Assembly (NCBI GenBank): GCA_021778515.1
Contig: JAJYCJ010000001.1
Location: 4,396 to 68,395, forward strand
Length of the DNA stretch: 64,000 nucleotides
DNA from: Acidobacteriota bacterium
Lineage (GTDB): Bacteria > Acidobacteriota > UBA4820 > DSQY01
Reading direction: 5' to 3'
The notes below the pieces were generated by a model. The model saw nothing but the letters and a program-made list of their open reading frames with translations, was not told the origin of the DNA and ran no database searches. Shown one piece after another: positions 10,164 through 45,210 of the stretch. Within the stretch, counting starts at the first letter, position 1, and each line of letters starts with the position of its first letter. Both the position numbers and the translations under genes were made by a program.

Positions 10164-12878
10164 TCACATCGGCGCCCCCTCGGGGCTCACGAGTGCCGGC
10201 TCCGGAAATCCGGCCGCCCTGAGCTGCGGCAGAACCGCCGCCCTGTCGCCCACCAGCACCACCAGCAGCTTGCTCCAGTCGAAGAGCCCCGAGGACGCAA
10301 TCGCATTGACTCCGGAGAGATGCGCGCGGTCCAGTGCCGCGATCTCCCGTCCCACCGAATCCAGGGGGCGGCCCTCCGCGATGATCTCCCCGAGCGTGTC
10401 CGAAAGGCCCGAAGCGGTGGCCGCCGAGCTCACGAGGTCGAAGCGGACCGTCCGGGTGGCCTTCGCGAGCTCATCGGCGGTGACGTTGCCCGAGGCGATG
10501 GCGTCGAACTCGCGCTTGAACTCCGCCAGCGCCGCCCCCGTCACGGCGGTCTGAACCGACGACGAGGCTCCCAGCATGAATTGGTCGGCCTCCCGCCACA
10601 GGCTGCTGCGAGCGCCGTAGGAGTAGCCGTGCTTTTCACGGATGTTCTGCATGAGGCGGCTCGTGAAGGCGCCTCCGAAGAGGGTGTTGAGGCTGTCCCT
10701 CAGCGCCTCCCCATCGGGCCCGCCGGTAGCCTCCACCGGGCGCATCACGTAGAGGACCGTTTGGGGTGCCCCGGGGCGGTCCACCAGCACAAGCCTCCCG
10801 GGCGCCGGCTGGATCAGCGGTTCCAGAGGAGGCGGGAGGTTCTCGGCGGGAGGCCGCCAGCCGCCGAGGCGCCGGTCGAGGGCGGCCTTCAGCGCTTCAC
10901 ACTCGAAGTCTCCGACGAAGACGAGGCTCGCGCCGGCGGGACGGAGCAGGCGCGGCAGGCACTCTCTCACGTCTTTCAGCTCGATGGCCTGTACACTCGC
11001 CGCGTAGCCAGCCCGCGGACGCCCGCGGGGGTCGTCCCGGCCGAAGATCATGGCCCGCGACGCCATGACGGCCACGACCTCGGGCCGTTCCACCCTGGAT
11101 CGGATGCCGGCCAGGGCGAGCTCCTTCTCCCGCGAGAAGTCCTTCTCCGAGAGCGTGGGCCGGAGCACCGCGTCGGCGAAGAGATCGAGCGTGGGAGCGA
11201 GCTGGGAGGAGAGCCCGTCGACCCTCACGGTGAAGGCGTGCCAGCTGCTCCCCGCTTCGATGGACGCCCCGAGCGAGGCGGCGGCCTCGGCAAAGCCCTC
11301 GGCGTCCAGGGAGCCCGCGCCGTCGGTCAGGAGCGATGCGGTGAGGGCGGCGAGGCCGGCCTTCTCCTTGGTAACGAGCCTCTCCCCGCCGTCCACCACG
11401 AGCACTCCCGAGAAGAGGCCGGTCCCGGGGCGGCTCACCACGTAGAGCTTCATCCCGTTGGCGAGGGTCATGGCTTCTGGCACCGGGGGATGCACCGGGG
11501 CGGGCGGGAAATCGGCCGGGCGCCGGGAGAGGTCCGCGCCGGGGCTCGCCGCCCCCCCGGGCAGGATGCGCAGGTCCAGCCTGCCCTCCCCGAGCACCTT
11601 GCTGGCCCAGCTCTTCAGTGAATCGGCGCTCGCGGAGGTGGTGGCGGCGAGGTCGCGCCGGAAGCCGTCGGGATCGCCGAAGGCGTGGTAGTAGGCGTTG
11701 AGCATGTCCGCCCGCTCCTGCAGGTCTTCCACCCTCCGCAGAAAGTGCGACTGAGCCGAGGCCTTCACCCGCTTCAGCTCGGCCTCGCTCGGTCCCTCCC
11801 GTTTGTAGCGATCGATCTCCTCCAGGATGGTCCTCTTGATCCTCTCCAGGTCGGCCCCTTCGGCGGCCCGCACCTGCACCGTGAACTCGGAGCCGAGATC
11901 CCTGGAGTGCTGGTAGACCGCCACGCTCTGGGCGGTCCGGTCCTGAAGGACCAGCCTCTGGTACAGCCGGCCGGCGTTGTCGGCCGAGAGGATGGCGGCC
12001 GTCAGGTTCATCTCGGCGTCGCCTGGATCGAAGGCCCTGGGCGAGGGCCAGACCAGCCAGAGCATGGGGTAGCGGACCTTGTCCGTGGCCATGCGGCGGA
12101 TCTCCCGGTCCAGCACCACGGGGGCCGCCGAGCGGTGCTCGGGAAGCGGCTGGGCCGGCACCGCGCCGAAGGTCTCGGCGACGATCTTCTTCACGGCCGC
12201 CCGATCGAAGTCTCCGGCCACGACCAGGCTGGCGTTTCCCGGGACGTAATAGGCGGCGAAGAAGTCCTTGACGTCTTTCAAGGTGGCCGCCTCCAGGTCC
12301 TCGTGGCTCCCGATGACCGGGTGGTGGTAGGGGTGACCCTCTGGGTAGAGGGCCTCAGGGATCATGAGCCACGCCTTGGCGTACGGCTGGTTCTCGTAGC
12401 TCTGCCTGCGTTCGTTGCGGACCACGCTGCGCTGGAGGTCCAGCTTCTCCTGGGTCATGGCCTTGCCCAGGCCCTCCATGCGGTCCGCGTCCAGCCAGAG
12501 AAGAGTCGGAAGAAGGGTGCTCGGGCCCCAGCTGTAGTAATTGGTGCGGTCCTCGGCGGTGGAGGCGTTGTTGGCCCCGCCTCCGCCCTCCATGATCCGG
12601 TCGAACTGGCCCTGCGGCACCCGATCGGTGCCCATGAACATGAGGTGCTCGAAGAGGTGGGCGAAGCCCGTCCGGCCCTCCGCCTCGTCCTTGGCCCCCA
12701 CGGCGTACCAGAGGTTGACGGCCACCTGAGGCAGCCGGTGATCCTCATGGAGGATGACCGTGAGGCCGTTGGGCAGCGTGTAGGTCTCCGCCGGAACGTC
12801 CTGGGACCGAACCGGCAGGGCGATCCCCAGCACCACCATCACCAAGCCCGCGCAGAACAAGCCAAGGCGCTTGTGCAT
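10164..12878 (-). CDS. M16 family zinc peptidase (two fused M16 units, pitrilysin/PqqL-like), secreted
   Basis: Inverted zincin motif HLFEHLMFMGT...E; about 900 aa two-copy architecture; signal peptide MHKRLGLFCAGLVMVVLGIALP; RBS GGAGGAGGGGAAG before ATG at 12878. Confidence 0.85.
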   Translation of the reverse strand: MHKRLGLFCAGLVMVVLGIALPVRSQDVPAETYTLPNGLTVILHEDHRLPQVAVNLWYAVGAKDEAEGRTGFAHLFEHLMFMGTDRVPQGQFDRIMEGGGGANNASTAEDRTNYYSWGPSTLLPTLLWLDADRMEGLGKAMTQEKLDLQRSVVRNERRQSYENQPYAKAWLMIPEALYPEGHPYHHPVIGSHEDLEAATLKDVKDFFAAYYVPGNASLVVAGDFDRAAVKKIVAETFGAVPAQPLPEHRSAAPVVLDREIRRMATDKVRYPMLWLVWPSPRAFDPGDAEMNLTAAILSADNAGRLYQRLVLQDRTAQSVAVYQHSRDLGSEFTVQVRAAEGADLERIKRTILEEIDRYKREGPSEAELKRVKASAQSHFLRRVEDLQERADMLNAYYHAFGDPDGFRRDLAATTSASADSLKSWASKVLGEGRLDLRILPGGAASPGADLSRRPADFPPAPVHPPVPEAMTLANGMKLYVVSRPGTGLFSGVLVVDGGERLVTKEKAGLAALTASLLTDGAGSLDAEGFAEAAASLGASIEAGSSWHAFTVRVDGLSSQLAPTLDLFADAVLRPTLSEKDFSREKELALAGIRSRVERPEVVAVMASRAMIFGRDDPRGRPRAGYAASVQAIELKDVRECLPRLLRPAGASLVFVGDFECEALKAALDRRLGGWRPPAENLPPPLEPLIQPAPGRLVLVDRPGAPQTVLYVMRPVEATGGPDGEALRDSLNTLFGGAFTSRLMQNIREKHGYSYGARSSLWREADQFMLGASSSVQTAVTGAALAEFKREFDAIASGNVTADELAKATRTVRFDLVSSAATASGLSDTLGEIIAEGRPLDSVGREIAALDRAHLSGVNAIASSGLFDWSKLLVVLVGDRAAVLPQLRAAGFPEPALVSPEGAPM

Positions 12879-12998
12879 CTTCCCCTCCTCCCCTATCGGC
12901 ATGATGGGCATTCCCCCGTTTCCCGGGCCCCGAACCGGGACCAACCACCCCAGATGGCACGGCTACCCGGCGAGGGGCCGACCGCCTGGTTGAAGGCT

Positions 12999-13397
12999 TC
13001 ATACGGGACCGCGGCCTGCGGGGTTTATCCCCCCGATTCCCGCAGGCCCGATTTCTCGTTCGGCCGGCCGATCCTCCGGCGGCTGCAGAGCGATGCCCAG
13101 GGCATCCAGCTTGCGCGCCATCCCCTCCGGGGTGTTGAGCGTGTGGACCGCGGTTCCGTCCTCCCGCTCGTAGGCGATGAGGCCTCCGCCCTCCAAGAAC
13201 GCCACGGCCACCCCGTCGCGCAGGCCGGGCACGGTGACGCGAAGGACCCCCACACCCTCTCCCGCCAGCTCCTCCACCGTCAGCCTGCGGGGCCCTCCCG
13301 CGAGCACGAAGCGCCCAGGGCAGTGGCGGATGGGCCGCCAGGGCCACGACGCCAGGAGTTCCCGAACGCTCCGACCCGGCTCTCTGACCTCGGCCAC
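12999..13397 (-). CDS. Hypothetical protein (132 aa), translationally coupled to the upstream metallophosphoesterase
   Basis: GTG start 8 nt after the phosphoesterase stop, with GAAGGAG embedded in the upstream C-terminal codons; high GC3; no recognisable family. Confidence 0.45.
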   Translation of the reverse strand: MAEVREPGRSVRELLASWPWRPIRHCPGRFVLAGGPRRLTVEELAGEGVGVLRVTVPGLRDGVAVAFLEGGGLIAYEREDGTAVHTLNTPEGMARKLDALGIALQPPEDRPAEREIGPAGIGGINPAGRGPV

Positions 13398-13404
13398 GGG
13401 CCCG

Positions 13405-13875
13405 TCACTCCTTCAGTACCACCAGCCGGTGGCTCACCCGCCCACCCTCCACCGTCAGGACGGCCGCCGAGACGGGCAGGGAAAAGCGGCGAGGGCCGGC
13501 GCTCCCGGGGTTGAGGTGGAGGACACCGCGCCGCACCTCGGCCGATGGGCGGTGCGAGTGGCCGGAGACGATCACCCCCACGCCCGCGGCGGCAGGGTCC
13601 AGGTCCAGATCACCGATGTCGTGGATCAGGTAGATCAGCACACCCTCGACCTCGACGGCGTCGGTGAGGGGAAGGCCCTCGGCCCACTCTCCCCCGTCCA
13701 CGTTGCCGCGGACGGCCCGCACCGGCGCCATCGCCCCGAGCCCTTCCAGCACCGCGGGCGAGCCGACGTCCCCGGCGTGCAGGATGAGGCGGCTCCCCCG
13801 CATGGCCTCCAGGGCCTCCGGCCTCAGCAGGCCGTGGGTGTCGGAGAGGACTCCGATCCTGATCTTGCTTCCCAT
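13405..13875 (-). CDS. Metallophosphoesterase, YfcE/MJ0936 family
   Basis: MGSKIRIGVLSDTHG...ILHAGDVG...RGNVD...VSGHSHRP: calcineurin-like phosphoesterase motifs; start chosen at MGSKIRIG (the ORF finder extends 103 aa upstream with G/R-rich sequence). Confidence 0.8.
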   Translation of the reverse strand: MGSKIRIGVLSDTHGLLRPEALEAMRGSRLILHAGDVGSPAVLEGLGAMAPVRAVRGNVDGGEWAEGLPLTDAVEVEGVLIYLIHDIGDLDLDPAAAGVGVIVSGHSHRPSAEVRRGVLHLNPGSAGPRRFSLPVSAAVLTVEGGRVSHRLVVLKE

Positions 13876-14130
13876 GAACACCGCCTCGCCTTGGAGTTCA
13901 TCCCTTCCCCGTTCTTCAGGGGCCGGGTGGTCCGAGGCAGATTGTATCAGCACCACCGGCCGCGCGGCGCCCGAGGTTGTTCGGAAGGAGTCGAATAGTC
14001 CCGGCGCAAACGGGGTTAAAAGGTAGAGAGCGGGCCATCGTCCTGCCGCCCGAGGAGGAGTTCCCTGGACCCGATCGAAGCGCTGCTCAACCGTCTCATC
14101 GACTACGCCGGCCTCTTTCCGCCCGCCGGA

Positions 14131-14420
14131 TTGACCATGGCCGATGCCGTGTCGAACTACGCGGCCTACCTCCGCGGCCCTCATGCCTGGATGCTGGGCC
14201 GGTTCGTCGTTCCCGCGGCCCGCCTGCGGGAGCTGGAGGCCGCAGTGGCGGGACTGACGTCCGCTGAAAGCGCCGCTGTGTGGCGGTTGTGCGTGCTGGC
14301 CTCCCCGCCGTGGGAGGATGCATCCCGGAGAATTGGCGCCCTGGGCCCCGAGGAAGGTCAGCCACTCCGCCTTCTCGCGGTGGAGGCCGTGGACATAAGG
14401 GTGGAGCGGCCCGGAGGAGG
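14131..14420 (+). CDS. Hypothetical protein, 5' segment (frame 1); appears frameshifted into, or interrupted before, the downstream ORF
   Basis: High-GC3 protein-like reading (MADAVSNYAAYLRGPHAWMLGRFVVPAARLRELEAAV...) that becomes G/R/P-rich nonsense after about 14420 without a stop; frame 2 becomes the coding frame at 14423. Confidence 0.3.
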
Positions 14421-14422
14421 TA

Positions 14423-14959
14423 ATGACGGCGAGGGAGGCCTTTGCGCTAACGCCGGAGTTCTACGTGGAACCTCCCCTCCACGCTTCGCCGGAGCCTTTC
14501 CTGACGGCCATGGCGGCGGCCGGGGTGCGCGCCAAGATCCGCACCGGTGGAGTCTCTCCCGACCAGATCTCCGGAGCCGAGTCCCTCGTCTGGTTCATGA
14601 CGGCGGCCCGATCCGCCGGCGTCTCCTTCAAAGCCACGGCTGGCCTGCATCATGCGCTCCGCTCCGTGCGGCCCCTCACTTACGGACCCGACGCCCCCAC
14701 GGGATTGGTGCACGGCTTCCTCAACCTGTTCCTGGCCGCCGCGCTCATCCGAAGCCTCGACGCGGGAGCCGCGGAGGCCCTCCGCCTCATCGAGGAGCGG
14801 TCCTCCTCCGTCCTCCGCCTGGATTCCCGGGGAGTCTCCTGGTCAGGCCGCCGATTGGGTTCCGAGGAGCTCGCTCTTGGCCGGACCTTTGCCCTGTCCT
14901 TCGGCTCCTGCTCCTTCCTGGAGCCGGTGGCTGACCTGAAGGAGATGCGATGGCTGTGA
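14423..14959 (+). CDS. Hypothetical protein (178 aa), overlapping the fahA start by 10 nt
   Basis: ATG preceded by GGAGGAGG; protein-like composition (MTAREAFALTPEFYVEPPLHASPEPFLTAMAAAG...); the stop overlaps the fumarylacetoacetase start. Confidence 0.6.
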   Translation: MTAREAFALTPEFYVEPPLHASPEPFLTAMAAAGVRAKIRTGGVSPDQISGAESLVWFMTAARSAGVSFKATAGLHHALRSVRPLTYGPDAPTGLVHGFLNLFLAAALIRSLDAGAAEALRLIEERSSSVLRLDSRGVSWSGRRLGSEELALGRTFALSFGSCSFLEPVADLKEMRWL

Positions 14960-16290
14960 TTCGGATTGACGAGACCCACCGTCCTGATCTGCGCTCCTTC
15001 GTGGCGTCGGCCAATGAGGCCGGCTCCGACTTCCCAATCCAGAACCTTCCCTTCGGGGTCTTCAGGCGCCGGGGCTCGACCGGCGCCCCCAGGATCGGGG
15101 TCGCCATCGGGAACGAGATCCTGGACCTGTCCGCCTGCGCCGCCCTCGGGCTCCTCGATCCCGCGGGGCCCGCCGTGGCGGCCGCCTGCCTCGCGCCCGC
15201 CCTCAATCCCCTCATGGCCCTCGGCCGGGAAGCCTGGCGCGGCCTCCGCCTCGCGCTCAGCCACCTCCTCGCCGAGGATTCACCCGCCGTCCGCAGGGAT
15301 CCCGGGCTGAGGGAGCGGATCCTCCTGCCCATGACCGAGGCGGATCTCCTCCTGCCTGCCCAGGTGGGCGACTACACCGACTTCTACGCCTCCCTGCACC
15401 ATGCAACCAACGTGGGCAGTATGTTCCGGCCCGACAACCCCCTCCTGCCCAACTACAAACACGTACCCATCGGCTATCACGGCCGGGCCTCCTCGCTGGT
15501 GCCGAGCGGGACGCCCGTGCCCCGCCCCTCGGGACAAATCCTGCCGGAGGGCGCCTCCTCCCCCCGGTTCGAGCCCACGAGGCAGATGGATTACGAATGC
15601 GAGGTGGGTGCCTTCGTCGGAGCGGGCAACGTGCTGGGCCACCCCATCCCGCTCGCGGAGGCCGAGGAGCACCTCTTCGGCCTCTGTCTGGTGAACGACT
15701 GGTCCGCCCGGGACGTGCAGAGATGGGAGTATCAGCCCCTCGGGCCCTTCCTCGCCAAGAGCTTCGCCACGAGTCTCTCTCCCTGGGTTGTGACTTTCGA
15801 CGCCCTGGCCCCCTTCAGGGCTCCGCCTTCCGCGCGGGGGGAAGGCGATCCCCCTCTTCTTCCTTACCTGGACGCCGAGGAGGACCGGCTGAACGGCGCC
15901 ATCGACCTGACCGTGGAGGTCCACCTGAGCACGCGGCGGATGAGGGAGTCGGGAGCGGCACCCGTCAGGCTCAGCCGAGGCCGGTTCAGGGAGTTGTATT
16001 GGACCATGGCGCAGATGCTGGCCCACCACGCGAGCAACGGGTGCAACCTGAGGCCTGGCGACCTCCTGGCCAGCGGCACCCTTTCCGGCCCGGAACGGGA
16101 GAACCGCGGCTGCCTTCTGGAGCTGACCTGGCGGGGACGGGAGCCCGTCCCGCTTCCCACGGGGGAGAGCCGCACCTTCCTGGAGGACGGCGACGCGGTG
16201 ACCTTGCGGGGCGCCTGCGAACGGGAGGGTTTCGCGCGCATCGGCTTCGGCGAGTGCACGGGTACGATCGTCGCCGGTCAGACCCGTTGA
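14950..16290 (+). CDS. fahA: Fumarylacetoacetase (fumarylacetoacetate hydrolase, eukaryote-type, with N-terminal domain)
   Basis: 446 aa; FAH N-terminal domain plus catalytic domain with conserved motifs (YTDFYAS, HVPIGYHGRASS, DYECEVGAFVG, FGLCLVNDWSARD, LASGT.SGPE); RBS GAAGGAG before ATG. Confidence 0.85.
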   Translation: MAVIRIDETHRPDLRSFVASANEAGSDFPIQNLPFGVFRRRGSTGAPRIGVAIGNEILDLSACAALGLLDPAGPAVAAACLAPALNPLMALGREAWRGLRLALSHLLAEDSPAVRRDPGLRERILLPMTEADLLLPAQVGDYTDFYASLHHATNVGSMFRPDNPLLPNYKHVPIGYHGRASSLVPSGTPVPRPSGQILPEGASSPRFEPTRQMDYECEVGAFVGAGNVLGHPIPLAEAEEHLFGLCLVNDWSARDVQRWEYQPLGPFLAKSFATSLSPWVVTFDALAPFRAPPSARGEGDPPLLPYLDAEEDRLNGAIDLTVEVHLSTRRMRESGAAPVRLSRGRFRELYWTMAQMLAHHASNGCNLRPGDLLASGTLSGPERENRGCLLELTWRGREPVPLPTGESRTFLEDGDAVTLRGACEREGFARIGFGECTGTIVAGQTR

Positions 16291-16303
16291 GCCGGGAGCG
16301 GTC

Positions 16304-16741
16304 TCAGCCCCCCGGGGTTGCGCCGATGGGCTGGTCGTGTGTGACGGGGACGAAGGTGAAGGACAGGACCTCGCGCTCCTCCGCCAACGTGCTGAAGGTC
16401 AGGATGGCGTCCACGTATCCCTTCTCGAAGGTGCAGAGCACGTGGATGCGCCAATGCTCGCCCTCCAGGTCAGCGGCCGTATAGCGGCGGCCCTGGAACC
16501 GGCCGTATTTCCGCGTGAGATCGCCCCACCGCCGCTTGAGCTGCTCCACCGTGGCATCGCCGCGCTGATTGGCGGGAAGGCACTGGGCCGCCCTGAAGAA
16601 ATCCCCCGCCGCAAGAAGGTCCACAAAGTTGAGGGCCGCGTCGTAGGGCGCGTCCCCGAAGACGCCCGGAGCGGGCGGGAGCTGACTCGCCGCCGGAAGA
16701 GCAATCAAAAGCAGAATACCGAGACACCACCACCACCTCAC
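16304..16741 (-). CDS. Secreted hypothetical protein (145 aa) with signal peptide
   Basis: MRWWWCLGILLLIALPAASQ signal peptide; balanced composition; lies downstream of serC on the same strand. Confidence 0.6.
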   Translation of the reverse strand: MRWWWCLGILLLIALPAASQLPPAPGVFGDAPYDAALNFVDLLAAGDFFRAAQCLPANQRGDATVEQLKRRWGDLTRKYGRFQGRRYTAADLEGEHWRIHVLCTFEKGYVDAILTFSTLAEEREVLSFTFVPVTHDQPIGATPGG

Positions 16742-16857
16742 GTTCGGACTCCTTCTCTCGTTTCAACGTAATCCCCGGTGGGGCGTGCGGCAAGGGCCAG
16801 GAAAGGAAAAGGCCGCCCGCGCGGTTCAGCGGGCGGCCAAGGCATTCGTGAGCGGTA

Positions 16858-17955
16858 TCAGCCGTTGCGGCGAATGAACTCTTCCATGAAGGAGACGAGG
16901 GTCTCGATCTGCAGCACGGTGACGGCGTTGTACATGGAGACGCGGATCCCGCCCAGGTCGCGGTAGCCCTTGAGGCCCACCATGCCGTTCTGCTTGGCCT
17001 CGGCGATGAACTTCGCCGTGAGCTCCTCGGTGGGGAGGAAGAAGTCCACGTTCATGGCGGAGCGGTCCTCCTTGACGGTGACCCACGGCCTGTAGAAGCC
17101 CGAGTGCTGGTCGATGCACCCGTAGAGGAGCTCGGCCTTCTTGAGGTTGTTCTTGTGGATGACGCCGAGTCCGCCGATCTGCTTGTTGTAGCTGAGGACG
17201 TTGCGCAGGATGTAGATGGAGAAGCAGGGGGGGGTGTTGTAGAGGCTGTTCTTCTCGGCGTGGATCTTGTAGCGCAGCATGGTGGGCAGCTTGTCGCTGC
17301 ACATCTCCAGAAAATCGTCCCGGATGAGCGCCAGCACCAGGCCGGAGGGACCGAGGTTCTTCTGGGCTCCGGCGTAGATGAAGCCGAAGGGCTTCACGTC
17401 GAAGGGGCGCCACATGAAGTCGCTGGACATGTCGGCTACGAGCGGGATGTTCCCGGTCTGCGGGAAGGTCTTCCACTGGGTGCCGTAGATGGTGTTGTTT
17501 GAGCAGATGTGGACGTAGGCCGCGTGGGAGTTGACCTTGATCTCCTCGGGACGCGGCAGGCGGCAGAACCTCTCGCTCTCCGTGGAGGCGATGCAGCGGG
17601 CGTCCTCGCCGGCCACGATGACCGCCTCCTTGTAGGCCTTCTTGGCCCAAGAGCCCGTCACGATGTAGTCCGCCTTGCGCCCCGAGTGGAGGATGTTCAT
17701 GGGCAGCATGGCGAACTGCATGTTGCCCCCGCCCTGGAGGAAGAGAACCTTGTAGTTGTCGGGGACGTTGAGGAGCTCCTTCACGAGGGCGATGGCCTCG
17801 TTGTGCACCGCGTCGTACTCCTTGGCGCGGTGGGAGATCTCCATCACCGACATGCCCGTGCCTTCGAAGTCCAGCATCTCCGCCTGAGCCCGCTCGAGGG
17901 CCGGGAGCGGCAGGCCCGCAGGACCAGCGTAGAAGTTGATCACCCGTTTGGCCAT
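16858..17955 (-). CDS. serC: Phosphoserine aminotransferase
   Basis: 365 aa; INFYAGPAGLP, PLP-binding region and the class V aminotransferase fold typical of SerC. Confidence 0.9.
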   Translation of the reverse strand: MAKRVINFYAGPAGLPLPALERAQAEMLDFEGTGMSVMEISHRAKEYDAVHNEAIALVKELLNVPDNYKVLFLQGGGNMQFAMLPMNILHSGRKADYIVTGSWAKKAYKEAVIVAGEDARCIASTESERFCRLPRPEEIKVNSHAAYVHICSNNTIYGTQWKTFPQTGNIPLVADMSSDFMWRPFDVKPFGFIYAGAQKNLGPSGLVLALIRDDFLEMCSDKLPTMLRYKIHAEKNSLYNTPPCFSIYILRNVLSYNKQIGGLGVIHKNNLKKAELLYGCIDQHSGFYRPWVTVKEDRSAMNVDFFLPTEELTAKFIAEAKQNGMVGLKGYRDLGGIRVSMYNAVTVLQIETLVSFMEEFIRRNG

Positions 17956-18038
17956 GCATCTCTCCTTCGGGAAGTCGAAACCGGTCGGCCGCGGGGCGAG
18001 GTTTTTTCAGCTCGCCGCCGTGCCGTTGCCTCGTCTGT

Positions 18039-18911
18039 TCACCTTCTCTTTTCCAGAATCTCCACGACGATGTCGCCGATCCTCAGCAGGTTCTCTTTCG
18101 ACGAAGCCCCGATGTGGGGCGTCATGAGCACGTTCGGGGCGGAGAGGAGCGGGCTGGAGGGATCGGGCGGATCCGAAGCCCAGACGTCCGTGCCGTACGC
18201 GCGCACCTTGCCCGACCGGAGGGCTTCGGCCAGGTCCTCCTCGACCATGACCTTGCCGCGGCTCGTGTTGATGAGGATCACCCCGTCCTTCATCTTGGCG
18301 AAGGCCGCCTTGTTCAACATGCCGCGGGTCTGATCCGTCAGCGGGGTGTGGATGCTGAGGTAGTCGGCCTCCTTCAACACGTCGTCCACGGAGGGCTTGA
18401 GCTGGGCGAAGTCGTGGTTCAGCACGAAGGGGTCGTAGGCGATGACCTTCATGCCGAAGGCCTTCGCGCGCTTGGCCACCTCCGTACCGATGAGTCCGAT
18501 CCCCAGCAGGCCCAGGGTCTTCTCGAAGAGCTCGGTGCGCTTGAGCTCCTTCTTGAGCCACTTCCCCTCCTTCATGGAGGTGTGGGCCTCCACGAGGCGG
18601 TTGGGGATGGCGAGCATGAGGGCCATGGCGAGCTCGGCCACCGCCACGGAGGAGGCCTGGGGCGTGTTCCTGACCTCGATCCCCTTCGCCTTGCAGGCCT
18701 CCTTGTCGATGTTGTCGGTGCCCACCCCGCCCCGAATCACGAGCTTCAGGTTGGGGGCGCCATCGACCACCTCTCGCGTGACCTTGGTCTTGCTGCGGAC
18801 GAGCAGGACTTCGGCTTCGCCGAGCCTCCCCACGTCCTCGTACACCTCGCCGAAAGCGGCGAGCCGCTTGGGCAGGGACGCGTCGAAGGCGTCCGCGATC
18901 AGGATCTTCAT
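18039..18911 (-). CDS. serA: D-3-phosphoglycerate dehydrogenase-like 2-hydroxyacid dehydrogenase (short form, no ACT domain)
   Basis: 290 aa; Rossmann motif GLLGIGLIGTEVAKRA; catalytic R...E...H (MTPHIGASS); adjacent to serC; lacks a C-terminal regulatory ACT domain. Confidence 0.75.
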   Translation of the reverse strand: MKILIADAFDASLPKRLAAFGEVYEDVGRLGEAEVLLVRSKTKVTREVVDGAPNLKLVIRGGVGTDNIDKEACKAKGIEVRNTPQASSVAVAELAMALMLAIPNRLVEAHTSMKEGKWLKKELKRTELFEKTLGLLGIGLIGTEVAKRAKAFGMKVIAYDPFVLNHDFAQLKPSVDDVLKEADYLSIHTPLTDQTRGMLNKAAFAKMKDGVILINTSRGKVMVEEDLAEALRSGKVRAYGTDVWASDPPDPSSPLLSAPNVLMTPHIGASSKENLLRIGDIVVEILEKRR

Positions 18912-30208: not shown

Positions 30209-32383
30209 CTACTTCCCGGCCTCTTTCTCCCGCGGCACGATCTCCGAGAAGTCCGCCACCCGGTCGAAGAGCGCCACGAGGCGCTGGAGGAGCGCCAGCC
30301 GGTTCTGCTGGAGCGCGGTCTTCTTCGGGTCCTTGCCCTGGGGATCGCACATCACCAGCACGTCGTCGAAAAAGCGGTCCACCGCGGGGCGCACCGTGGC
30401 CAAGCGGCGCAGGGCGCCGGCATAGTCCCGCCTATCCAGGAGGCGGCCCGCCTCGTCCTTGACGGCTTCGTAGGCTGCATACAGCAGCCGCTCGCCCGCC
30501 CCCTCCTTTTGGTCCTCGGACAAAAAGAGTTCGGGGGCCAATTCGTAGCGAGGGATGCCTTTCAGGATGTTCCGGACGCGCTTGAAGGCCACCGAGAGGT
30601 GGTCGAAATCCTCCGCGAACTCGTTGCGGATCGTGTGCAGGGCCGCGATCTTCCGGTGCGCTTCGGCGGGGTCGCCCAGACCGAATGCCAGCAAGGCGTT
30701 GGCTTCGTCATAGCCGTAGCCATGAACCTCCCAAAGGAAGCGCAGCCGGCCAGCAAGAAAATCCATCAGCCCTTCGGGGACTCCGCCCATCTCCTGGAGA
30801 AACGAGGGCAGATCCAGGGGACGCGCCTTCTCCGTGAGGATTCGCAGCAGGGCGACGGCCGCCCTCCTAAGGGCGAAGGGGTCTTTGGATCCCGTCGGGG
30901 CCTGGCCGGCAGTAAACATCTCGGACAGGGTGTCGAGCCGGTCGGCCACCGCCACGCAATCGCCCAGGACGCCTCGGGGGAGGGCATCCTCCGTGAAGAG
31001 CGGTCGGTAGTGGTCGTAGATCGCCTCGGCCACCTCGGCGGGCTGCCCTTGGGCTGCCGCGTAGAGGCCGCCGGCGATTCCCTGGAGCGTCGTGAACTCC
31101 TTCTCCTGGACGAGCAGTGAGACGAGGTCGCACTTGCAGTGCAGCGCGGCCCAGGCGGCGCCCTCGGCATTGGCGCCCCACAGGTCTGCCAGCCTCTTGG
31201 CCGTCCGCTCCAGCCGCTCCGACTTGTCGTAGTAGCTCCCCGCCTTGGCCTGGAACACAACTCCCTTCAGCGCCTCCAGCCGCTCTTCGATGGGCACCTT
31301 CACGTCCTGCTCGTAAAAGAACCGGGCATCGGAGAGGCGGGAGCGGGAGACGTTTTCGAGGCCTCTCCGGATGAAGCCCCTGGGATCGTCGGGGCCGTCC
31401 GTGACGGACAGAAAATGCGGCAGCACCGAGTCCTCGGCCCCTCGCACCACGAAGAAATTCTGGTGCTCCCTCAGGCAGGTCACCAAAATCTCAGAGGGAA
31501 GAGCCAGATACTCGGCGGGTATGCCGCCCGCGAGAACGGCGGGGAACTCGCACAGGTAGACCAGCTTCTCCAGGAGCTCGGGGTCGCCGGGCACGTGGCC
31601 GCCGAGGGCGGTCGCGCGCTGGCCGAGCTCGTCCTCGATCTTCCGTTTTCGGTCGGCCGGATCGGCCAGGACGCGCTCCCGCCGAAGCGTCTGGAAGTAA
31701 GCCAGGGCCGACGCGATCTCGACCTCCGCCGCCCCGTGGATCCTGTGGCCGCGGCTGATCCGCCCCGCCGCCACGCCTTTGATGGAGAGGGTCACGACCT
31801 GGTCATCGAGGAGCGCCACGACCCATCGCACGGGACGGACGAAGGTCTGGCTCCCGTTCCCCCAGTGCATGGCCTTGGGGAGGTAGAGGGCATCCACGGC
31901 CGCGGGAACGATCTCCGAGAGAATCTCCTCGGTGGGCCTGCCCTTGACCGTGCGCTCGAAGCCCACGCAGGGTCCCTTGGGGCCCTGGACCTGCCGGCAG
32001 TCGTCCAGGTCCACCCCCTGCTTGCGGGCGAATCCCTCGGCGGCCTTGGTCCACTGCCCGCCGGCATCGCGGGCCACGGCCATGGCGGGGCCCACCACCG
32101 TCTCGCTGCGATCGTCCTGGCGGGCGGGCAAGCCCGGAAGAAGGAAGCCGATGCGGCGCGGCGCGGCGATCATTTTCCCGCCGGGGATCTCTGAGAAAGG
32201 GTCGTGATCCGGATCAGGATCCAGATCGGCTCCGTTCCACAGATGATGTTCTCTAAGTGCTTCGATGATGCTCTGTGCGAGCCTCCACGGAAGGTCTTGT
32301 CTATTACCACCCATTCCGGAACGAAAGGAGAGCATCCCCGCCGGGATCTCCTCGGTGCCGATCTCCAGGAGGAAGTCAGCCAC
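30209..32383 (-). CDS. glyS: Glycine--tRNA ligase beta subunit
   Basis: 724 aa; N-terminal [12 protein letters not shown] and overall GlyS architecture; overlaps glyQ by 8 nt. Confidence 0.9.
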
Positions 32384-33245
32384 GGGCCACCTCCTGTGCG
32401 GGCTCGAACTGCTTCATGTAGGCCGCGGCGCAGGCGCAGGCCAGGCGGCGCACCCGCTTGATGTAGTCGGCGCGGGCCGCCACCGAGATGGCCCCCCGCG
32501 CGTCCAGGATGTTGAAGGCGTGGCTGGCCTTCAGGCAGAAGTCGTAGGCAGGGAGGTAGAGCTCTTTCTCCACCAGGCGCCGGCTCTCGGCCTCGTACTG
32601 GTCGAACCAGGCGGCCGTCAGGTCGGTCCTGGCCTCCTCGAAGTCGTAGACGGAGAACTGGCGCTCCGCCTCCCTCCGCATGTCCCCGTAGCTGAAATGC
32701 TCGTTCCACGGGATCTCGTAGACGTTCCCGATGTCGTTGAGGAACATGCAGAGCCGCTCGATGCCGTAGGTGATCTCCACCGTGATGGGCTTGAGCTCGA
32801 AGCCTCCCGCCTGCTGGAAGTAGGTGAACTGCGTGATTTCGGTGCCGTCCAGCATGACCTGCCAGCCCACGCCCCAGGCGCCGAGCGTGGGGGCCTCCCA
32901 GTTGTCCTCCTCGAACTTCAGGTCGTGCTCCCCGAGCACGATGCCGAAGGACTCCAAGCTCCGCAGGTAGCGCTCCTGGATGTCGTCGGGGCTGGGCTTC
33001 ATGATGACCTGGAACTGGTGGTGCTTCTCGACCCGCTGGGGATTCTCGCCGTAGCGCCCGTCCCGCGGCCGCCGGCACGGCTCCACGTAGGCGCTGGCGT
33101 AGGGCTGAGGCCCGAGCACGCGGAGGAAGGTCTCGGGGTTCATGGTCCCGGCCCCCTTCTCCAGGTCGTACGGCTCGGCGATGAGGCATCCCTCGCCGGC
33201 CCAGAAGTGCTTCATCCTCTCGATGAGTTCCTGCATGCTGACCAT
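32376..33245 (-). CDS. glyQ: Glycine--tRNA ligase alpha subunit
   Basis: Start chosen at [16 protein letters not shown] with RBS GGAAGCGGAGA; class II GlyQ motifs ([30 protein letters not shown]); the 85 upstream codons in the ORF are R/P/G-rich. Confidence 0.9.
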
Positions 33246-33300
33246 GGTCGTCTCCGCTTCCTTCCCGCGGTCCTGTCCCGTGGATCCCGCCGGCCACGGC

Positions 33301-34074
33301 TCAAGGCCCGGCCGCGCCCCCGAGGCTCTCGAGCGCCGGCCAGGTGGCCAACGGCCGTCCCAGATAGGCGGCGAGCGCCCAATATACCATACCCGACAGG
33401 GCTGAGAGGGCCTCCCGCGGGAACTCCCGCCGGGCCAGAGAAGCCAGGGGCGTCCGGAAGATCGCCTCCAGAAGGGAGGCCATGGGGCCCGTGAGAGCAC
33501 GTGCCTCGGCCGGCCGCGGCCGTTGGCAGCCGGGGCAGCGCCACTCCCCAGCCCCCAGGTCCAGCAGGAGCGGGTAGCTCTGGGCGCCGCAGGTCACGCA
33601 CCCCTCCGGCCTCGGGAAGACCCCGTGCAGCCGGAGAAGCCAGGCGGAGAAGTAGACCCAGGCCAGCAGGGGCGGCGCGCCAGCCCGCAGTCCCGCCAGC
33701 ACGGCGCCCAGGAGCCGGTAGCTCTCCTCCTCCGCGGCATGGGCGGGCAGGGCGCGCTCCAGGGTCTCGCCCAACCCCATGAGCACGACCGCCTCGGGCC
33801 AGCGGCCGTGGAGGTCCAGCGATCCCTCCAGCAGCTCGGCCGACCTGAGGGCTCCCAGCTCGCGCCCCTCCTTCAGCACCACCTCCACACGTACCCGGCT
33901 CAGCGGTTCGAGAGCACCGCGGAAGGGGGACGTGGTTCGCCTGGCCCCCTTGGCCACCGCCCGCACGACCCCCTCCTCGCGCGTGAAGAGGGTGACGATC
34001 CAGGAGGACTCGGTGAGAGGATGCCGCAGGAGGACGAAGGCCTCGCAAGTCACAAAGGGCATGAGACGGTGCAC
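33301..34074 (-). CDS. recO: DNA repair protein RecO
   Basis: 257 aa; OB-fold N-terminus and C4 zinc finger (CVTCG...CPGC); conserved recO-glyQ-glyS synteny. Confidence 0.85.
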
Positions 34075-35421
34075 TTACCCGGGCGCGTGCGATGGAGGCT
34101 GGGCTTCTCCCTGTTGGTTCAGGGCCAGTCCCACCAGGAAGAAGATGAGGGTCGCCACCTCGGCGTCCCCCACGTTGAATTCGAAGAAACCTCCCACGAG
34201 GATCGCTGTCAGGGCCGCCATGGCCCCATATCGCAAGACGGAGTCTGGCTGGGCAGCAATCCTGCGGAAAGCCGCTACCACGAAGGCGAAAAAGAGTATC
34301 AGCCCCAGAAGCCCCGACTGAATAGCGACCATAAGGTATATGTTGTGGGCGTGGCTCACGGTCTGAAACCCGATGTGGGTGGGGTAATGGATGAAGTGGG
34401 CATAGGGTGCCTTGTAGGGGCCGGCGGTCTCCTTGTAAATGCCGGGGCCCCATCCGATGAGGGGTTTGTCCTGCCACATGTGGAAGCCCGAAATCCACAA
34501 GTAGATACGTTCGGCAACGCTAGGGTTCCTCAGATTCCAGGCGTCGGCCAGGCGCTCTCGGACCCCAGGAGGCCCGGCCAGGAGCGTCACGACTCCTCCT
34601 ACCAACACCGCCACCACCACCGCCAGCACCGCCTTTTTCCCCTTCTTCCAGAATAGAACAGCCAAGGCCGGCAAGGCCGCCACAAAGTAGGTGCGGGCCA
34701 GGCTGAAAAAGAGACCCAGCGTCGAGAACCCGGCGGCCAGCCACCAAAACCAGGAGATCCGGAGAGAGGGCAAGAGCGAACCCAAGATGGATATTCCCCT
34801 CCGCGCCGGGGGAACCGGGTCCTTCAAGCCCGAAGACGACCTGATCGGATCCTTCCACGCGGCTTCTCCTCCGGCTTCCACCGCTTCGGTTCCGTTTCCG
34901 TAAAGGGCCCTGGCTCCGAAGAGGCAGAGGCAGACCGTGATGACCCCGGCGTAAGTCAAATGGGTGCTGAAGTAGCCGTAGGCATTGACTTGGCCGAAGG
35001 GGACGCGCTGGGAAAGGAGATGATGGTGAAAGTCGGTTCCCAGGAAGAATTCCGCAGCGGCCATGGGCACCGTCAGGAGGGCACCGGCGGCCAGGAAATC
35101 GATGTAGCGGCGGAAGTGTCTGCGCACCGCCCACGGCAGAGAGGCCCCCACGAAAAGGGCCGACCAGGACCAGTGGTTGAGAACACCCACGAGGGCCTCG
35201 TGGCGCAGGGGGCTGAAGAGCGCCGAGAGAACGTTGGTCGCCAGGTAGGCGATCAAAAGCCACTCAGGCGTGGTCGGCCGCCACCGGCCGCGGACCATCC
35301 GCCAGAGAAAGAAGAGGCTTAGCCCTCCCTGCCCCGCGTTGATGGCCGCCAGACTTAGGCAGGAGGCGGCTCCGAGAAAATAGAAAAAGAAGAGCTCAAG
35401 GGCTATCACGAAAGGCCTCAT
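34075..35421 (-). CDS. O-antigen ligase / Wzy_C family polytopic membrane protein
   Basis: 448 aa, about 11 TM helices, a periplasmic loop with conserved H/R (WGPGIYKE..HAHNIYLMVAIQSG) typical of the O-antigen ligase domain. Confidence 0.8.
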   Translation of the reverse strand: MRPFVIALELFFFYFLGAASCLSLAAINAGQGGLSLFFLWRMVRGRWRPTTPEWLLIAYLATNVLSALFSPLRHEALVGVLNHWSWSALFVGASLPWAVRRHFRRYIDFLAAGALLTVPMAAAEFFLGTDFHHHLLSQRVPFGQVNAYGYFSTHLTYAGVITVCLCLFGARALYGNGTEAVEAGGEAAWKDPIRSSSGLKDPVPPARRGISILGSLLPSLRISWFWWLAAGFSTLGLFFSLARTYFVAALPALAVLFWKKGKKAVLAVVVAVLVGGVVTLLAGPPGVRERLADAWNLRNPSVAERIYLWISGFHMWQDKPLIGWGPGIYKETAGPYKAPYAHFIHYPTHIGFQTVSHAHNIYLMVAIQSGLLGLILFFAFVVAAFRRIAAQPDSVLRYGAMAALTAILVGGFFEFNVGDAEVATLIFFLVGLALNQQGEAQPPSHAPG

Positions 35422-36538
35422 AGCGGGTCACGACGAACTCCTTCATCTCGCGGACGTACCGGTCGGCGTTGAAGCGCGCGGCCTTGGCGGTCATGGCGCT
35501 GGTCTGGAAGAGGTGCTGCTTGCGATCAAACTCGGCCATGGCCTGGGCCAGCGACTCCGCCGAGGGTTCTTCAAAGAAGAGTCCGGTCGCGGCGCCGAAA
35601 TCGGCTCCCTCGGGCGGGACCACGGTCTCCAGGGCGCCGCCCCTGGCGTAGGCGATCACCGGCGTCCCCGCCGCCTGCGCCTCCACGGGTGCGATGCCGA
35701 AATCCTCCTCGCCGCAGAAGAGCAGGGCCCTGGCTTGGGCCATCTCCTCGGCCACGGCCGCGTCCGGAAGGCGACCCAGGAAGGACACGGTGGGGCCGGC
35801 CAGCCGCTTCAGCCGCTCCATCTCGGGCCCGTCGCCCACCACGCGGAGCGGCAGCCCCAGCCGCGTGCAGGCCACGACGGCGAGATCCGTCCTCTTGTAC
35901 GGCACCATGCGCCCCACGACGAGGAAGGACTCACTCCGCCTCTCCGCGGGAGAGAAGCGCTCCACCTCCACGGGCGGGTAGATCACCGTCGCCTCCTTGT
36001 CGTAGATGCGCCGGATGCGGCGCGCCACGTTCCGCGAGTTCGCCGCATAGGCGTCCACCCTCCGGCCCGCCAGTGCGTCCCACTGGCGGATGTAGTGGAG
36101 CACGGCCCGGGCGGCCCACGACCGGGCACCTGTCGTTAGACCGCTCAGACGGAGGTATGGTTTATACAGATCCCAGGCGTAGCGCATAGGCGTGTGGCAA
36201 TAGCAGAGATGGAGGGCGTCGGAGCGCACCAGGGCCCCGTGGGCCACGCTGTGCGAGAAGGAGAGGACCACCTCCGCCTCGTCCAGATCGAGCTGCTCGA
36301 CGGCGAACGGGAAGAGGGCCAGGAAGGTCCGATACCGCTTCCGGAAGAGGGGCCGGTTCAGGAAGGTGGTGTGGATGATGCGGTCCCCGATGACCGAATT
36401 CTCGAACTGTCCGGGGTCATAGAAGAGCGTGTGGACCGGGGCCGCCGGGAAAAGGGTGCAGAGGAGTTCCAGGCAGCGCTCGGCCCCGCCGTAATCCACC
36501 AGCCAGTCCTGGACGAAGGCGATCTTCGGCTCAGTCAA
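35396..36538 (-). CDS. Glycosyltransferase family 4 (GT-B, WbuB-like)
   Basis: IAFVQDWLVDYGGAERCLELL N-terminus and an EX7E-type C-terminal GT4 domain; proposed TTG start overlaps the upstream GT4 stop by 8 nt (the ORF finder start at 36661 is preceded by non-protein-like sequence). Confidence 0.75.
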   Translation of the reverse strand: MTEPKIAFVQDWLVDYGGAERCLELLCTLFPAAPVHTLFYDPGQFENSVIGDRIIHTTFLNRPLFRKRYRTFLALFPFAVEQLDLDEAEVVLSFSHSVAHGALVRSDALHLCYCHTPMRYAWDLYKPYLRLSGLTTGARSWAARAVLHYIRQWDALAGRRVDAYAANSRNVARRIRRIYDKEATVIYPPVEVERFSPAERRSESFLVVGRMVPYKRTDLAVVACTRLGLPLRVVGDGPEMERLKRLAGPTVSFLGRLPDAAVAEEMAQARALLFCGEEDFGIAPVEAQAAGTPVIAYARGGALETVVPPEGADFGAATGLFFEEPSAESLAQAMAEFDRKQHLFQTSAMTAKAARFNADRYVREMKEFVVTRYEAFRDSP

Positions 36539-37667
36539 GGGCGAACTCCACGATCTCTCGGAGGCGGCGCTCCGGGTTGAAGAGCGTCTCCACCCGTCCC
36601 CGGCCCGCCTCTCCCATCCGCGCCCGGAGCACCGGGTCCGCCAGCAGGGGCTCCACGGCACCGCGAAGGGCCACGGCGTCCTTCTCCGCGTGGAAGCCGG
36701 TGACCCCGTGCTCCACGATCTCCGGCAGTCCGCCGCTCCGCGTGACCACCACCGGGAGGGTGCGGGCCATCCCCTCCACGGCCACCAGACCGAAGGGTTC
36801 CTCCCAGAGGGACGGTACCACCAAGACGTCCAGGGCGTCCAGAAAGGCCATGGATTCGACCATCCGCCCGGTGATGACCACCCTCGACGGGTCGGTGGCG
36901 GCCGCCGCCGCCCGCACCCGCGTCTCCTCGGCGGGGTCCTCGAAATCGGCCGCCCCGGCCACGAGCAGCTTGAGGCGGGGATAGGCCGGCAGCAGGGGAA
37001 GGAGGGCCTCCAGGAAGAGGCGCTGGCCCTTGGTCCGCGAGATACGCCCCAGGACGCCCACCGCCAGATCGTGCGGCAAGAGCCCGAAGCCCTGCCTGGC
37101 CGCGGCCCGCTCCGGGGGCTCCTTCAGGAACCGCGGGCTCACCCAGTAGAAGATGGTCCTGCCCTTGTCTCCGCAGAGGGCCCGAAAGGGGGCGGCCACC
37201 GCCGAGGAGCAGAAGACCACGTGGCGCACCTCGGGCCGCCCAAAGCACCAGTTCAGCAACCGGTGCTCCAGCCCCCGCTCGAAGATGAGGTGGAGGCCGC
37301 AGGTCACGGGCGTCCGGGTGTGCCGCGCGGCCAGCACGGCGGGGAGGAAGGTCCTGGGCGCGTTGGCGTAGATCAGGTCGGCCGCGTCAGCTTCCAGAAA
37401 TCGCCGCAGCACCTTCGCCGCCCGTCGGGCATGGATCGGATAGGCGAGCTTTTGTGAGATCGGCTTTCGGCCGGGTGTCATGTCGGGAATGGGAAGGGGC
37501 CGCACGGGAAATCCCGCCGATTCCAGGCTCTCCGACGCAGTGCCCCGCCCCGGAAGAAACACCGTGACCCGATGGCCGCCCTGGCGGAAGGCCTCGGCCA
37601 GGTCCATCAGGATGCGCTGCCCGCCGCCGAGACCTGCATACTGGTCCAGCAAGACCACGTGAGCCAT
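36531..37667 (-). CDS. Glycosyltransferase family 4
   Basis: Start chosen at MAHVVLLDQYAGLGGGQRIL; GT4 C-terminal domain (VVPSLWEEPFGLVAVEGMARTLPVVVTRSGGLPEIV); the 121 upstream codons in the ORF are not protein-like. Confidence 0.8.
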   Translation of the reverse strand: MAHVVLLDQYAGLGGGQRILMDLAEAFRQGGHRVTVFLPGRGTASESLESAGFPVRPLPIPDMTPGRKPISQKLAYPIHARRAAKVLRRFLEADAADLIYANAPRTFLPAVLAARHTRTPVTCGLHLIFERGLEHRLLNWCFGRPEVRHVVFCSSAVAAPFRALCGDKGRTIFYWVSPRFLKEPPERAAARQGFGLLPHDLAVGVLGRISRTKGQRLFLEALLPLLPAYPRLKLLVAGAADFEDPAEETRVRAAAAATDPSRVVITGRMVESMAFLDALDVLVVPSLWEEPFGLVAVEGMARTLPVVVTRSGGLPEIVEHGVTGFHAEKDAVALRGAVEPLLADPVLRARMGEAGRGRVETLFNPERRLREIVEFALD

Positions 37668-37902
37668 GGGTCCTAGGATACCCTGGCGGCAGGGCTCAGA
37701 ACAAGCACCCTGGGCGCCCCGATCCCGCGATGGCGCGCAGAAGGCGGTGGTGGGCGGAGGTGCAGGAGAACGGCAGATTCGGCGCCCGGGAGGCACTCGA
37801 CCTCTTCCATTCGAACGGAGCATGGCGCCCCCCCGGCCGCCGGGGGAACCAATCGGCCTCTTGCCGGTCTGACGATCCAGGTCAGGAGAAAGGAGGTGGC
37901 CC

Positions 37903-38604
37903 ATGTTCGAAACCGTCGTGGAGAGACCGAAGGGAGCCGTGACGAGGGGCATGAAGGCACTGCCCGCGGCGGTCATGGTCCACATGGCGCTGGCGGCCGC
38001 GCTTCTGCTCGCCGCCCTCCTGGCGCCCATCCACCTTCAGCCGCCGCCCTTCCAGTTGACGGGAGTCATCATCCCCGTGACGCTCGCGCCCGTGGGGAGC
38101 GCCAAGGCGCCTCCCGAGCGGCCGGCGATCCGCAAACCGGTCACCGAACCCCATGGGCTCACCGCCCCCGCCGAAGTCCCCAAGGGATTGTCCAAGGGCC
38201 TTGCCCCGGCGGATGAGGCCCCCGTCCAGGCCGGACAGGGCATCCCCGGTGGAGTGCCCGTCGAGTTTCTGGGCCAGGGCGGCCCTCCCGCCACGGCGCA
38301 ACCTCAAGCCCCCAAGATCCTGCCCGCCTGGGCCGTTACGGCGCCGCACCTGATCCGCCAGGTGCAGCCCCTCTACCCCGAAGCCGCGCGGGCCATGGGC
38401 TTGACGGGCAAGGTCCTGTTGCAAATCGTCGTGAACCAGGATGGACGGGTGGTGAGCGTGGAGGTCATGCAGACGAGCAACCCCATCTTCATCGATCCCG
38501 CCGTCGCCGCCGTGAAGCAGTGGCGCTACAGCCGGCCCATCGACGCCGGAGGCCAGTCCGTCGCCTGCTACGTCACCGTGCTGGTGAGCTTCACGATGGG
38601 CTGA
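37903..38604 (+). CDS. TonB family protein (energy transducer, C-terminal TonB domain)
   Basis: N-terminal TM, Pro-rich spacer, TonB_C motif (YPEAARAMGLTGKVLLQIVVNQDGRVVSVEVMQTS); RBS AAAGGAGGTG before ATG. Confidence 0.8.
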   Translation: MFETVVERPKGAVTRGMKALPAAVMVHMALAAALLLAALLAPIHLQPPPFQLTGVIIPVTLAPVGSAKAPPERPAIRKPVTEPHGLTAPAEVPKGLSKGLAPADEAPVQAGQGIPGGVPVEFLGQGGPPATAQPQAPKILPAWAVTAPHLIRQVQPLYPEAARAMGLTGKVLLQIVVNQDGRVVSVEVMQTSNPIFIDPAVAAVKQWRYSRPIDAGGQSVACYVTVLVSFTMG

Positions 38605-39652: not shown

Positions 39653-39663
39653 CGTGGCTCCCG

Positions 39664-40572: not shown

Positions 40573-40578
40573 GGACCG

Positions 40579-40884: not shown

Positions 40885-40890
40885 CCCCCC

Positions 40891-43154: not shown

Positions 43155-43156
43155 GT

Positions 43157-45194: not shown

Positions 45195-45210
45195 CGGTCG
45201 CGCCTTTCGC

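Follow-up and report, generated by a model that had tools for sequence, protein, structure and literature searches.

What is encoded by two overlapping reading frames that lie directly upstream of fahA, the fumarylacetoacetase gene, in an uncultured acidobacterium? The DNA analysed here (hereafter the window) is a stretch of 64,000 nucleotides from assembly GCA_021778515.1, contig JAJYCJ010000001.1. As seen from the sequence and from comparison with homologues, positions 14065-14959 of the window on the forward strand are a single gene of 297 codons and 895 nt, termed gene X below, which is split by a 1-nt insertion. The best overall explanation of the locus, which we regard as fairly probable, is one broken gene with a CTG start, present as a null or hypomorphic allele and belonging to a family of maleylacetoacetate isomerases. 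The main value of the locus lies in this family, which is abundant, phylogenetically broad, unnamed, confidently modelled and tied to fumarylacetoacetase (FAH) and homogentisate dioxygenase (HgmA).

The protein-like text of frame 1 is LDPIEALLNRLIDYAGLFPP...AVEAVDIRVERP, or LDPIEALLNRLIDYAGLFPPAGLTMADAV...AVEAVDIRVERP when read from position 14065. Past the junction this frame is rich in glycine, arginine and proline and stays open for about 174 nonsense codons, until a TGA at 14932-14934 that lies 15 nt upstream of the fahA ATG. The open reading frame (ORF) lister begins frame 1 only at TTG 14131 (ORF 14131..14934), because that frame has no earlier ATG, GTG or TTG. Frame 2 contains a TAA at 14396-14398, followed by GGAGGAGG at 14413-14420 and an ATG at 14423-14425, the apparent start of an ORF of 178 amino acids that ends with the TGA at 14957-14959. 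A preliminary description of the window, made from the letters alone, had reported these frames together with the TAA, a Shine-Dalgarno element, an in-frame CTG, the ATG and a 10-nt overlap with fahA, and all of them are present in the sequence. The change of frame that it placed at about 14420 is real, but the coding signal changes frame at 14412/14413.

Joining of the two halves by a +1 frameshift into one protein of 270-300 amino acids had been proposed as well, and this is borne out. The joined translation has about 297 residues and matches more than 7,800 proteins of about 300 amino acids that span both halves, with coverage of 97-100% and E-values from 1e-163 to 1e-63; relatives with two small genes in this place were not seen among these homologues. 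P0001, at 97% identity, and P0002, at 85% and from a metagenome-assembled genome of Acidobacteriota, match best; they read ...VERPEEVM... and ...VERPEDVA... across the junction. At the DNA level the window has CGGCCCGGAGGAGG where contigs L001, L002 and L003 have CGGCCCGAGGA (L001 being CGGCCCGAGGAGG), and a 99%-identical relative has exactly one G fewer at the junction. A tblastn search with the 85% orthologue breaks at 14411-14412 between frame 1 and frame 2, with high-scoring segment pairs (HSPs) at 14065-14412 and 14411-14956. Codons 1-116, with strands beta1 to beta4 of the structural model described below, occupy 14065-14412 in frame 1; codons 117-297 and the stop, from alpha4 to alpha8, occupy 14414-14959 in frame 2. 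The frameshift site between them is GGCCCGG at 14408-14414, with one G in surplus: 14413/14414 when compared with L001 and L002 (CGG CCC GAG), 14408/14409 when compared with L178 (CGC CCG GAG). What looks like two reading frames is one gene, interrupted by one surplus G. The break falls after codon 116, past beta4, at the half-barrel boundary of the model. The ATG at 14423 is Met120 of the intact protein, preceded by GGAGGAGG as coding sequence; its start-like context is incidental because Met120 is not conserved in the 85% relative (PEDVAAARE).

Gene X is the only split gene detected. Nine other syntenic genes gave single full-length HSPs each in tblastn, and ten further overlapping open-frame pairs in the window are distinct complete genes by Pfam, so the assembly is not riddled with frameshifts. 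No other split gene was found among the 19 tested in the window (the nine syntenic genes and ten further ORFs).

A profile search of 1.84 billion cluster representatives returned 5,763 clusters (50% identity) at E <= 1e-3, of which 4,831 at E <= 1e-10. The family is spread over Acidobacteriota, Gemmatimonadota, Planctomycetota, Cyanobacteria, Bacteroidota and Verrucomicrobiota. No Pfam or NCBIfam match was obtained at E <= 1 for either half or for the fusion, a profile search of the Protein Data Bank (PDB) gave only noise (best E 0.046), and every source name of a cluster member is 'hypothetical protein'. No description of the family was found in the open-access full-text literature; a characterisation in a subscription journal could be missed. 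The earlier statement that no family is recognisable is correct for the curated libraries but not beyond them, as a very large unnamed family exists.

The motifs IDYAGLFPP, AKxRTGG, FKATAGLHH and FGSCSFxEP are invariant or nearly so in an alignment of 34 sequences, and all four are found in the window translation; the C-terminal half (14414-14959) bears the last three of them, the second as AKIRTGG. After removal of one G the window gene is similar to the family from end to end, carries the motifs and is followed by FAH; it lacks an uninterrupted frame. Invariant residues are Glu135, Lys157, Arg159, Thr160, Lys189, Thr191, His195-His196, Asn220 and Ser281-Cys282-Ser283. An AlphaFold2 model of the corrected protein (mean predicted local distance difference test, pLDDT, 92.7; predicted template modelling score, pTM, 0.91) alternates strands and helices, and is confidently predicted to be a (beta/alpha)8 or TIM barrel. 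On or after its predicted strands are placed E135 (beta5), K157, R159 and T160 (beta6), K189, T191 and H195-H196 (beta7 and the following loop), N220, and S281-C282-S283 with E286 (end of beta8). The nearest structural neighbours of the model are class I aldolases of the DERA type. One family member, P0140 (545 aa), is extended at its N-terminus by 250 residues with a match to the Rce1-like CAAX protease family; it could be a genuine fusion or two genes merged in the call.

Gene neighbourhoods were sampled at 80 loci from species-representative genomes and in a separate, independent metagenome sample. FAH lies within the flank in 72 of the 80 genome loci. In 63 of these 80, and in 46 of 51 metagenome loci, it directly follows X on the same strand, mostly overlapping or less than 30 nt apart. 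HgmA is immediately upstream in 23/80 genome and 9/41 metagenome loci, and HPPD is in the flank in 21/80 genome loci. The fullest order, on contig L004, is AsnC-type regulator, aminotransferase, HPPD, HgmA, X, FAH. The eight genome loci without adjacent FAH had no informative alternative neighbour. Two side observations belong here. An ORF that joins X to FAH, P0232, occurs in two samples (L184, 3001-5414, and L185; ERZ23486236 and ERZ27283689) and consists of residues 1-295 of X, followed by a linker of about 65 residues, acidic and rich in proline, and by residues 6-161 of FAH; the remaining FAH (residues 164-440) stands beside it in the next ORF in another frame, and FAH itself appears to be frameshifted there. 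Contig L036, labelled Candidatus Saccharimonadales, carries HPPD, HgmA, X and FAH, and is probably misbinned because such a cluster is unexpected in a reduced Saccharimonadia genome.

The homogentisate pathway runs from HPPD through HGD and maleylacetoacetate isomerase to FAH. X is read as the isomerase because in full clusters it fills the slot of the sole pathway step without a gene. From the gene neighbourhood and this missing step, we give a little more than an even chance to X being a maleylacetoacetate isomerase that is not a GST (glutathione S-transferase). For the family at large, in at least seven phyla, the chances that it is a previously unrecognised, GST-unrelated, TIM-barrel maleylacetoacetate isomerase seem evenly balanced. 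The idea of a substitute for this isomerase had already been raised in the preliminary description and fits the conserved HgmA-X-FAH gene order. What would be new is that an unrelated protein family performs a known reaction.

As a GST-independent cis-trans isomerase, X would feed fumarylacetoacetate to FAH. The mechanism suggested by glutathione in GST-zeta and by the maleate isomerase cysteine would begin with the addition of a nucleophile, probably Cys282, to C2 of the enone, in which a lysine iminium or acid-base groups of His or Glu might help. Acid-base catalysis or polarisation of the 4-oxo group would be the part of the lysines and histidines. The C2-C3 bond would then rotate and the nucleophile would be eliminated.

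The GST-zeta isomerase (MaiA/HmgC/GSTZ1, EC 5.2.1.2) has the same slot as X, between homogentisate 1,2-dioxygenase and fumarylacetoacetase, and the reaction is presumably the same for both. It differs from X in fold, a thioredoxin-like plus a helical domain instead of the predicted TIM barrel, and the sequences are unrelated: X has no GST_N or GST_C match in Pfam or NCBIfam at E <= 1, and no glutathione-binding motif is recognisable in it. Precedents for glutathione-free maleyl cis-trans isomerisation are maleate isomerase of the Asp/Glu racemase superfamily, the mycothiol-dependent DinB-type and the L-cysteine-dependent BagL maleylpyruvate isomerases. In maleate and thiol-cofactor isomerases the double bond is attacked by a cysteine of the enzyme or by another small thiol, and X is like them in having one invariant cysteine, in FGSCSFxEP. 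X is unlike the maleate and maleylpyruvate isomerases in that it has no family match to them and another fold, and its substrate would be maleylacetoacetate.

A family linked to FAH that is not an isomerase is possible, if doubtful. X could be an aldolase or lyase acting on acetoacetate, another beta-diketo acid or a side product, or a non-catalytic partner of FAH. Class I aldolases are the best structural neighbours, and two invariant lysines are on predicted strands beta6 and beta7 (K157 in strand 155-159, K189 in strand 188-191, as placed by the model). Most X-FAH pairs are, moreover, not beside HgmA or HPPD. In full clusters, however, X is exactly between HgmA and FAH, with the isomerase as the sole step without a gene; no GST-type isomerase is nearby in 160 loci; and X has no sequence or profile relationship to aldolases. 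With DeoC/DERA, X would have the (beta/alpha)8 fold in common, as modelled, but there is no detectable sequence or profile homology between them.

Several points weigh against the assignment of X as an isomerase and must be set beside it. The function is argued solely from gene neighbourhood and missing-step logic. The window itself has neither HgmA nor HPPD, and most loci have no adjacent HgmA or HPPD. The search that found no GST-zeta-like gene in the 160 loci or in the 64-kb window had no positive control. Foldseek against the PDB gave no hit at E <= 0.001 and only weak hits, the fold match is generic for TIM barrels, and there is no sequence match in the PDB. Profile similarity to DERA was not detected, and hhalign against E. 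coli DeoC gave a probability of 0.6%. The catalytic roles of Cys282 and of the lysines are guesses.

If X is the isomerase, a textbook step of tyrosine and phenylalanine degradation is performed across much of the bacterial world by a family without a name, a Pfam model or a solved structure. The isomerase gap in the homogentisate-pathway annotation of Acidobacteriota, Gemmatimonadota, Planctomycetota, Bacteroidota, Cyanobacteria and others would be filled, and pathway reconstructions, which have this gap systematically in soil and freshwater phyla, would be corrected. Cis-trans isomerase chemistry would gain a new fold and possibly a cofactor-free mechanism. Glutathione-independent isomerase activities were described biochemically decades ago, and X might be the gene behind them.

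The start of gene X is non-canonical in all likelihood. The gene frame is closed upstream by a TAA at 14017-14019, and in the window, L001, L178 and L180 it has no ATG, GTG or TTG before TTG 14131 and ATG 14137. Both of these codons are downstream of the segment IDYAGLFPPAGL with the near-invariant IDYAGLFPP, strand beta1 of the model. The CTG at 14065-14067 aligns exactly with Met1 of about 10 of 33 homologues, and candidate family starts at the 160 loci cluster at offsets -5 to 0 from it. The Shine-Dalgarno element GAGGAGGAG, read in the sequence at 14052-14060, contains a GGAGG core (14054-14058) that is separated from the CTG by 6 nt; neighbouring genes have AGGAG or GGAGG sites 5-9 nt before their starts. 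Shine-Dalgarno element and CTG are the sole constant features of the leader among close strains, and the former is kept in every close relative despite a change of the upstream frame. This change stems from a C-run at 14063-14065, 5' of and running into the CTG, which has 3 C in the window and 4 C in L002, L003 and L179; in L179, too, the upstream frame reaches a stop without a canonical start. The stretch 5' of the CTG is therefore non-coding, its frame being altered by the C-run indel. Translation of gene X thus most likely starts at CTG 14065, and the hint at such a start in the preliminary description is strongly supported by the missing canonical start, the Shine-Dalgarno spacing and the Met1 alignment. 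Initiation at ATC 14074 instead of CTG 14065 is possible.

Public gene calls in this lineage are either 273 aa long, from the internal ATG 14137 (L001, 394-1215; L178-L180, 1189-2010), or 324 aa long, from an unrelated upstream ATG (L002, 8001-8975). The 273-aa call lacks strand beta1 and IDYAGLFPP, neither call fits the N-termini of the family, and both are probably wrong. The conserved CTG start of the lineage would have been missed by gene callers, with 273-aa truncations or a 324-aa extension as the result. The CTG start is of modest interest in itself and bears on annotation.

The broken allele is not confined to the window. The exact 178-aa ORF was found on 10 contigs from ENA, NCBI and Logan, including ERZ27236866, ERZ27236874, GCA_027388675.1, SRR17201898, SRR13178630 and SRR13178628. 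All contigs examined among them (L170-L175) have the GG version and match the window at every position of the 895-nt gene; 0-14 flanking single-nucleotide polymorphisms (SNPs) separate them from the window and from one another. Strains with an identical FAH carry X in frame: L178 (GCA_027388645.1), L179 (GCA_027388695.1) and L180 (ERZ27236897). Because the insertion is identical in at least six independent assemblies, beside intact alleles with identical FAH, it is, on this comparison of assemblies, a genuine allele segregating in wild populations of the uncultured acidobacterium. Among the origins offered for the shift at the outset, an authentic mutation is upheld, a sequencing error is excluded, and a programmed event is unlikely, orthologues and sister strains being in frame. 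Several of the flanking SNPs also occur in strains with intact alleles, and since broken-allele and intact-allele contigs have them in common, they suggest that the broken allele persisted or was moved by recombination. Within window positions 12423-18290, compared with L170-L183, the SNPs 13911G>A, 15021C>T and 17526G>C are mosaic across frameshift and intact contigs, which suggests within-population recombination or strain-consensus assemblies. An exact-pattern scan of JGI metagenome contigs found neither allele, and a follow-up protein scan found relatives at <=47% identity only.

Four alleles are known at the site: the ancestral CGG CCC GAG (L001, L002 and L003), the broken CGG CCC GGAG (window, L170-L177, L181 and L182), and the intact CGC CCG GAG (L178) and CGA CCG GAG (L179 and L180); as sequence strings they are CGGCCCGAG, CGGCCCGGAG, CGCCCGGAG and CGACCGGAG. 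Within the gene, L178 differs from the window solely by the loss of G 14408, 5 nt upstream, which restores the frame. Both affected codons are four-fold degenerate, and the repair therefore restores Arg-Pro-Glu. The shortest path across the four alleles takes three events and passes through the broken allele (from the ancestral allele, gain of G to the broken one, loss of G to L178, then C>A to L179 and L180); any path that bypasses the broken allele needs four. For this reason the broken allele appears to be an evolutionary intermediate that was later repaired by a compensating deletion. It has to be held against this order of events that it depends on a parsimony count of three versus four, and that a metagenome contig can represent a consensus of strains. 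Taken by itself the frameshift is ordinary biology, in an unusually well documented natural polymorphism with apparent repair, and provides a small, clean example of a gene broken and then apparently repaired in a wild population.

Decay of the upstream half, the other possibility in the preliminary description, is contradicted by its identity with the same half in the intact sister alleles. Pseudogene decay was also considered as a candidate on account of six amino acid changes relative to L001 that polarise to the window branch, with a ratio of nonsynonymous to synonymous substitution rates (dN/dS) of 1.15 versus 0.39. The test of the window-branch dN/dS was not significant (p = 0.12-0.28), and the decay reading was dropped because the intact alleles L178-L180 carry the same six changes. 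Gene X evolves faster than its neighbours: in comparison of the window with L002 its dN/dS is 0.39-0.43, versus 0.07-0.22 for fahA and the serC-like, 2-hydroxyacid dehydrogenase and DUF1015 genes. Along 5.3 kb of aligned DNA there are no indels but the C-run at 14063-14065 and the frameshift site, both of them in gene X or its leader. The pair might indicate local proneness to indels, or a tuning of the spacing between Shine-Dalgarno element and start.

Judged from its sequence, the broken allele is most likely null or strongly hypomorphic. The predicted product would consist of residues 1-116, the N-terminal half-barrel, and a nonsense tail of about 174 residues. A separate C-terminal fragment of 178 aa may also arise from the incidental GGAGGAGG-ATG. 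In the intact gene, X would be translationally coupled to fahA via the 10-nt overlap, and in the broken allele coupling may persist, with frame 1 stopping 15 nt upstream and frame 2 overlapping by 10 nt. The broken allele is perhaps tolerated because either frame ends near enough to the fahA start for coupling. In Gstz1-null mice loss of the isomerase is survivable, as isomerisation also proceeds without the enzyme.

Full-length X could be made from the broken allele at a reduced level by +1 slippage, programmed or leaky, if peptidyl-tRNA-Pro on the CCC at 14410-14412 re-paired with CCG and restored ...VERPEEVM...; we hold this to be improbable. CCC-G is a +1-prone proline site (tRNA-Pro, m1G37, EF-P), and the SD-like GGAG at 14403-14406 is 3 nt upstream of the CCC, the spacing found in prfB, where a +1 shift is likewise needed and an SD-like sequence precedes a slippery P-site codon. 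The 0-frame codon in the A site, GGA, is a minor one (12% of Gly codons). The allele persists on several backgrounds without further damage, and the otherwise undamaged state of the recovered copies, which is expected of a recent mutation, fits low-level recoding too and so counts against a plain null allele. Wild-type cells, on the other hand, hold CCC-N slippage to about 1% or less. Unlike prfB, the site has no in-frame stop (that is, no 0-frame stop), the shift is not conserved in orthologues, being absent in L001, L002, L003, L178-L180 and about 160 more distant loci, and the allele is polymorphic in one population. GGAG and CCC are ordinary coding sequence that is also present in the intact alleles, and neither a stimulatory RNA structure (z = -0.14) nor an Rfam element was found at the site.

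Two functional genes, whose half-barrels would be made separately and assemble into an active enzyme, are highly improbable at this locus. Artificially split (beta/alpha)8 barrels can assemble in this way, the break separates beta4 from alpha4, where the model has its half-barrel boundary, and the downstream half has its own GGAGGAGG-ATG. The upstream product, however, has no stop at the junction and runs into about 174 nonsense residues up to 14934, no split was seen in the more than 160 homologous loci sampled, and the internal Met is not conserved. That the frameshift is a sequencing or assembly error in an intact gene is scarcely credible: the difference is a single base beside short G and C runs, in a gene otherwise undamaged and identical to the intact allele L178, but at least six samples or runs, processed with different pipelines, yielded the same GG allele independently, the GG contigs have backgrounds with different flanking SNPs, other samples of the same accession series give in-frame alleles with different local sequence, and the other genes tested in the window are unbroken. 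One gene interrupted by a real single-base insertion is the preferred reading of the site.

The downstream gene fahA (14950-16290, + strand) encodes fumarylacetoacetase of 446 aa; its first 10 nt are also the last 10 nt of gene X, and AAGGAG precedes it at 14939-14944. The fahA orthologue has PF09298 and PF01557, and the window fahA matches it with 94% identity in a single HSP (tblastn). Upstream, on the - strand at 13405-13875, is a divergent Metallophos_2 phosphoesterase gene of 156 aa, which the ORF lister over-extends to 259 aa, across the start of X. A promoter scan of the 188-nt divergent intergenic region (13876-14064) gave no sigma-70-like match. Further along, positions 32376-38036 hold glyQ, recO, an O-antigen-ligase-like gene and two GT4 glycosyltransferase genes. 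A respiratory cluster on the - strand (38660-51895) comprises genes for a prenyltransferase of the UbiA family, cytochrome oxidase subunit I, SCO1/SenC, an NrfD-like membrane protein and, with a resemblance to alternative complex III, a molybdopterin/4Fe-4S protein.

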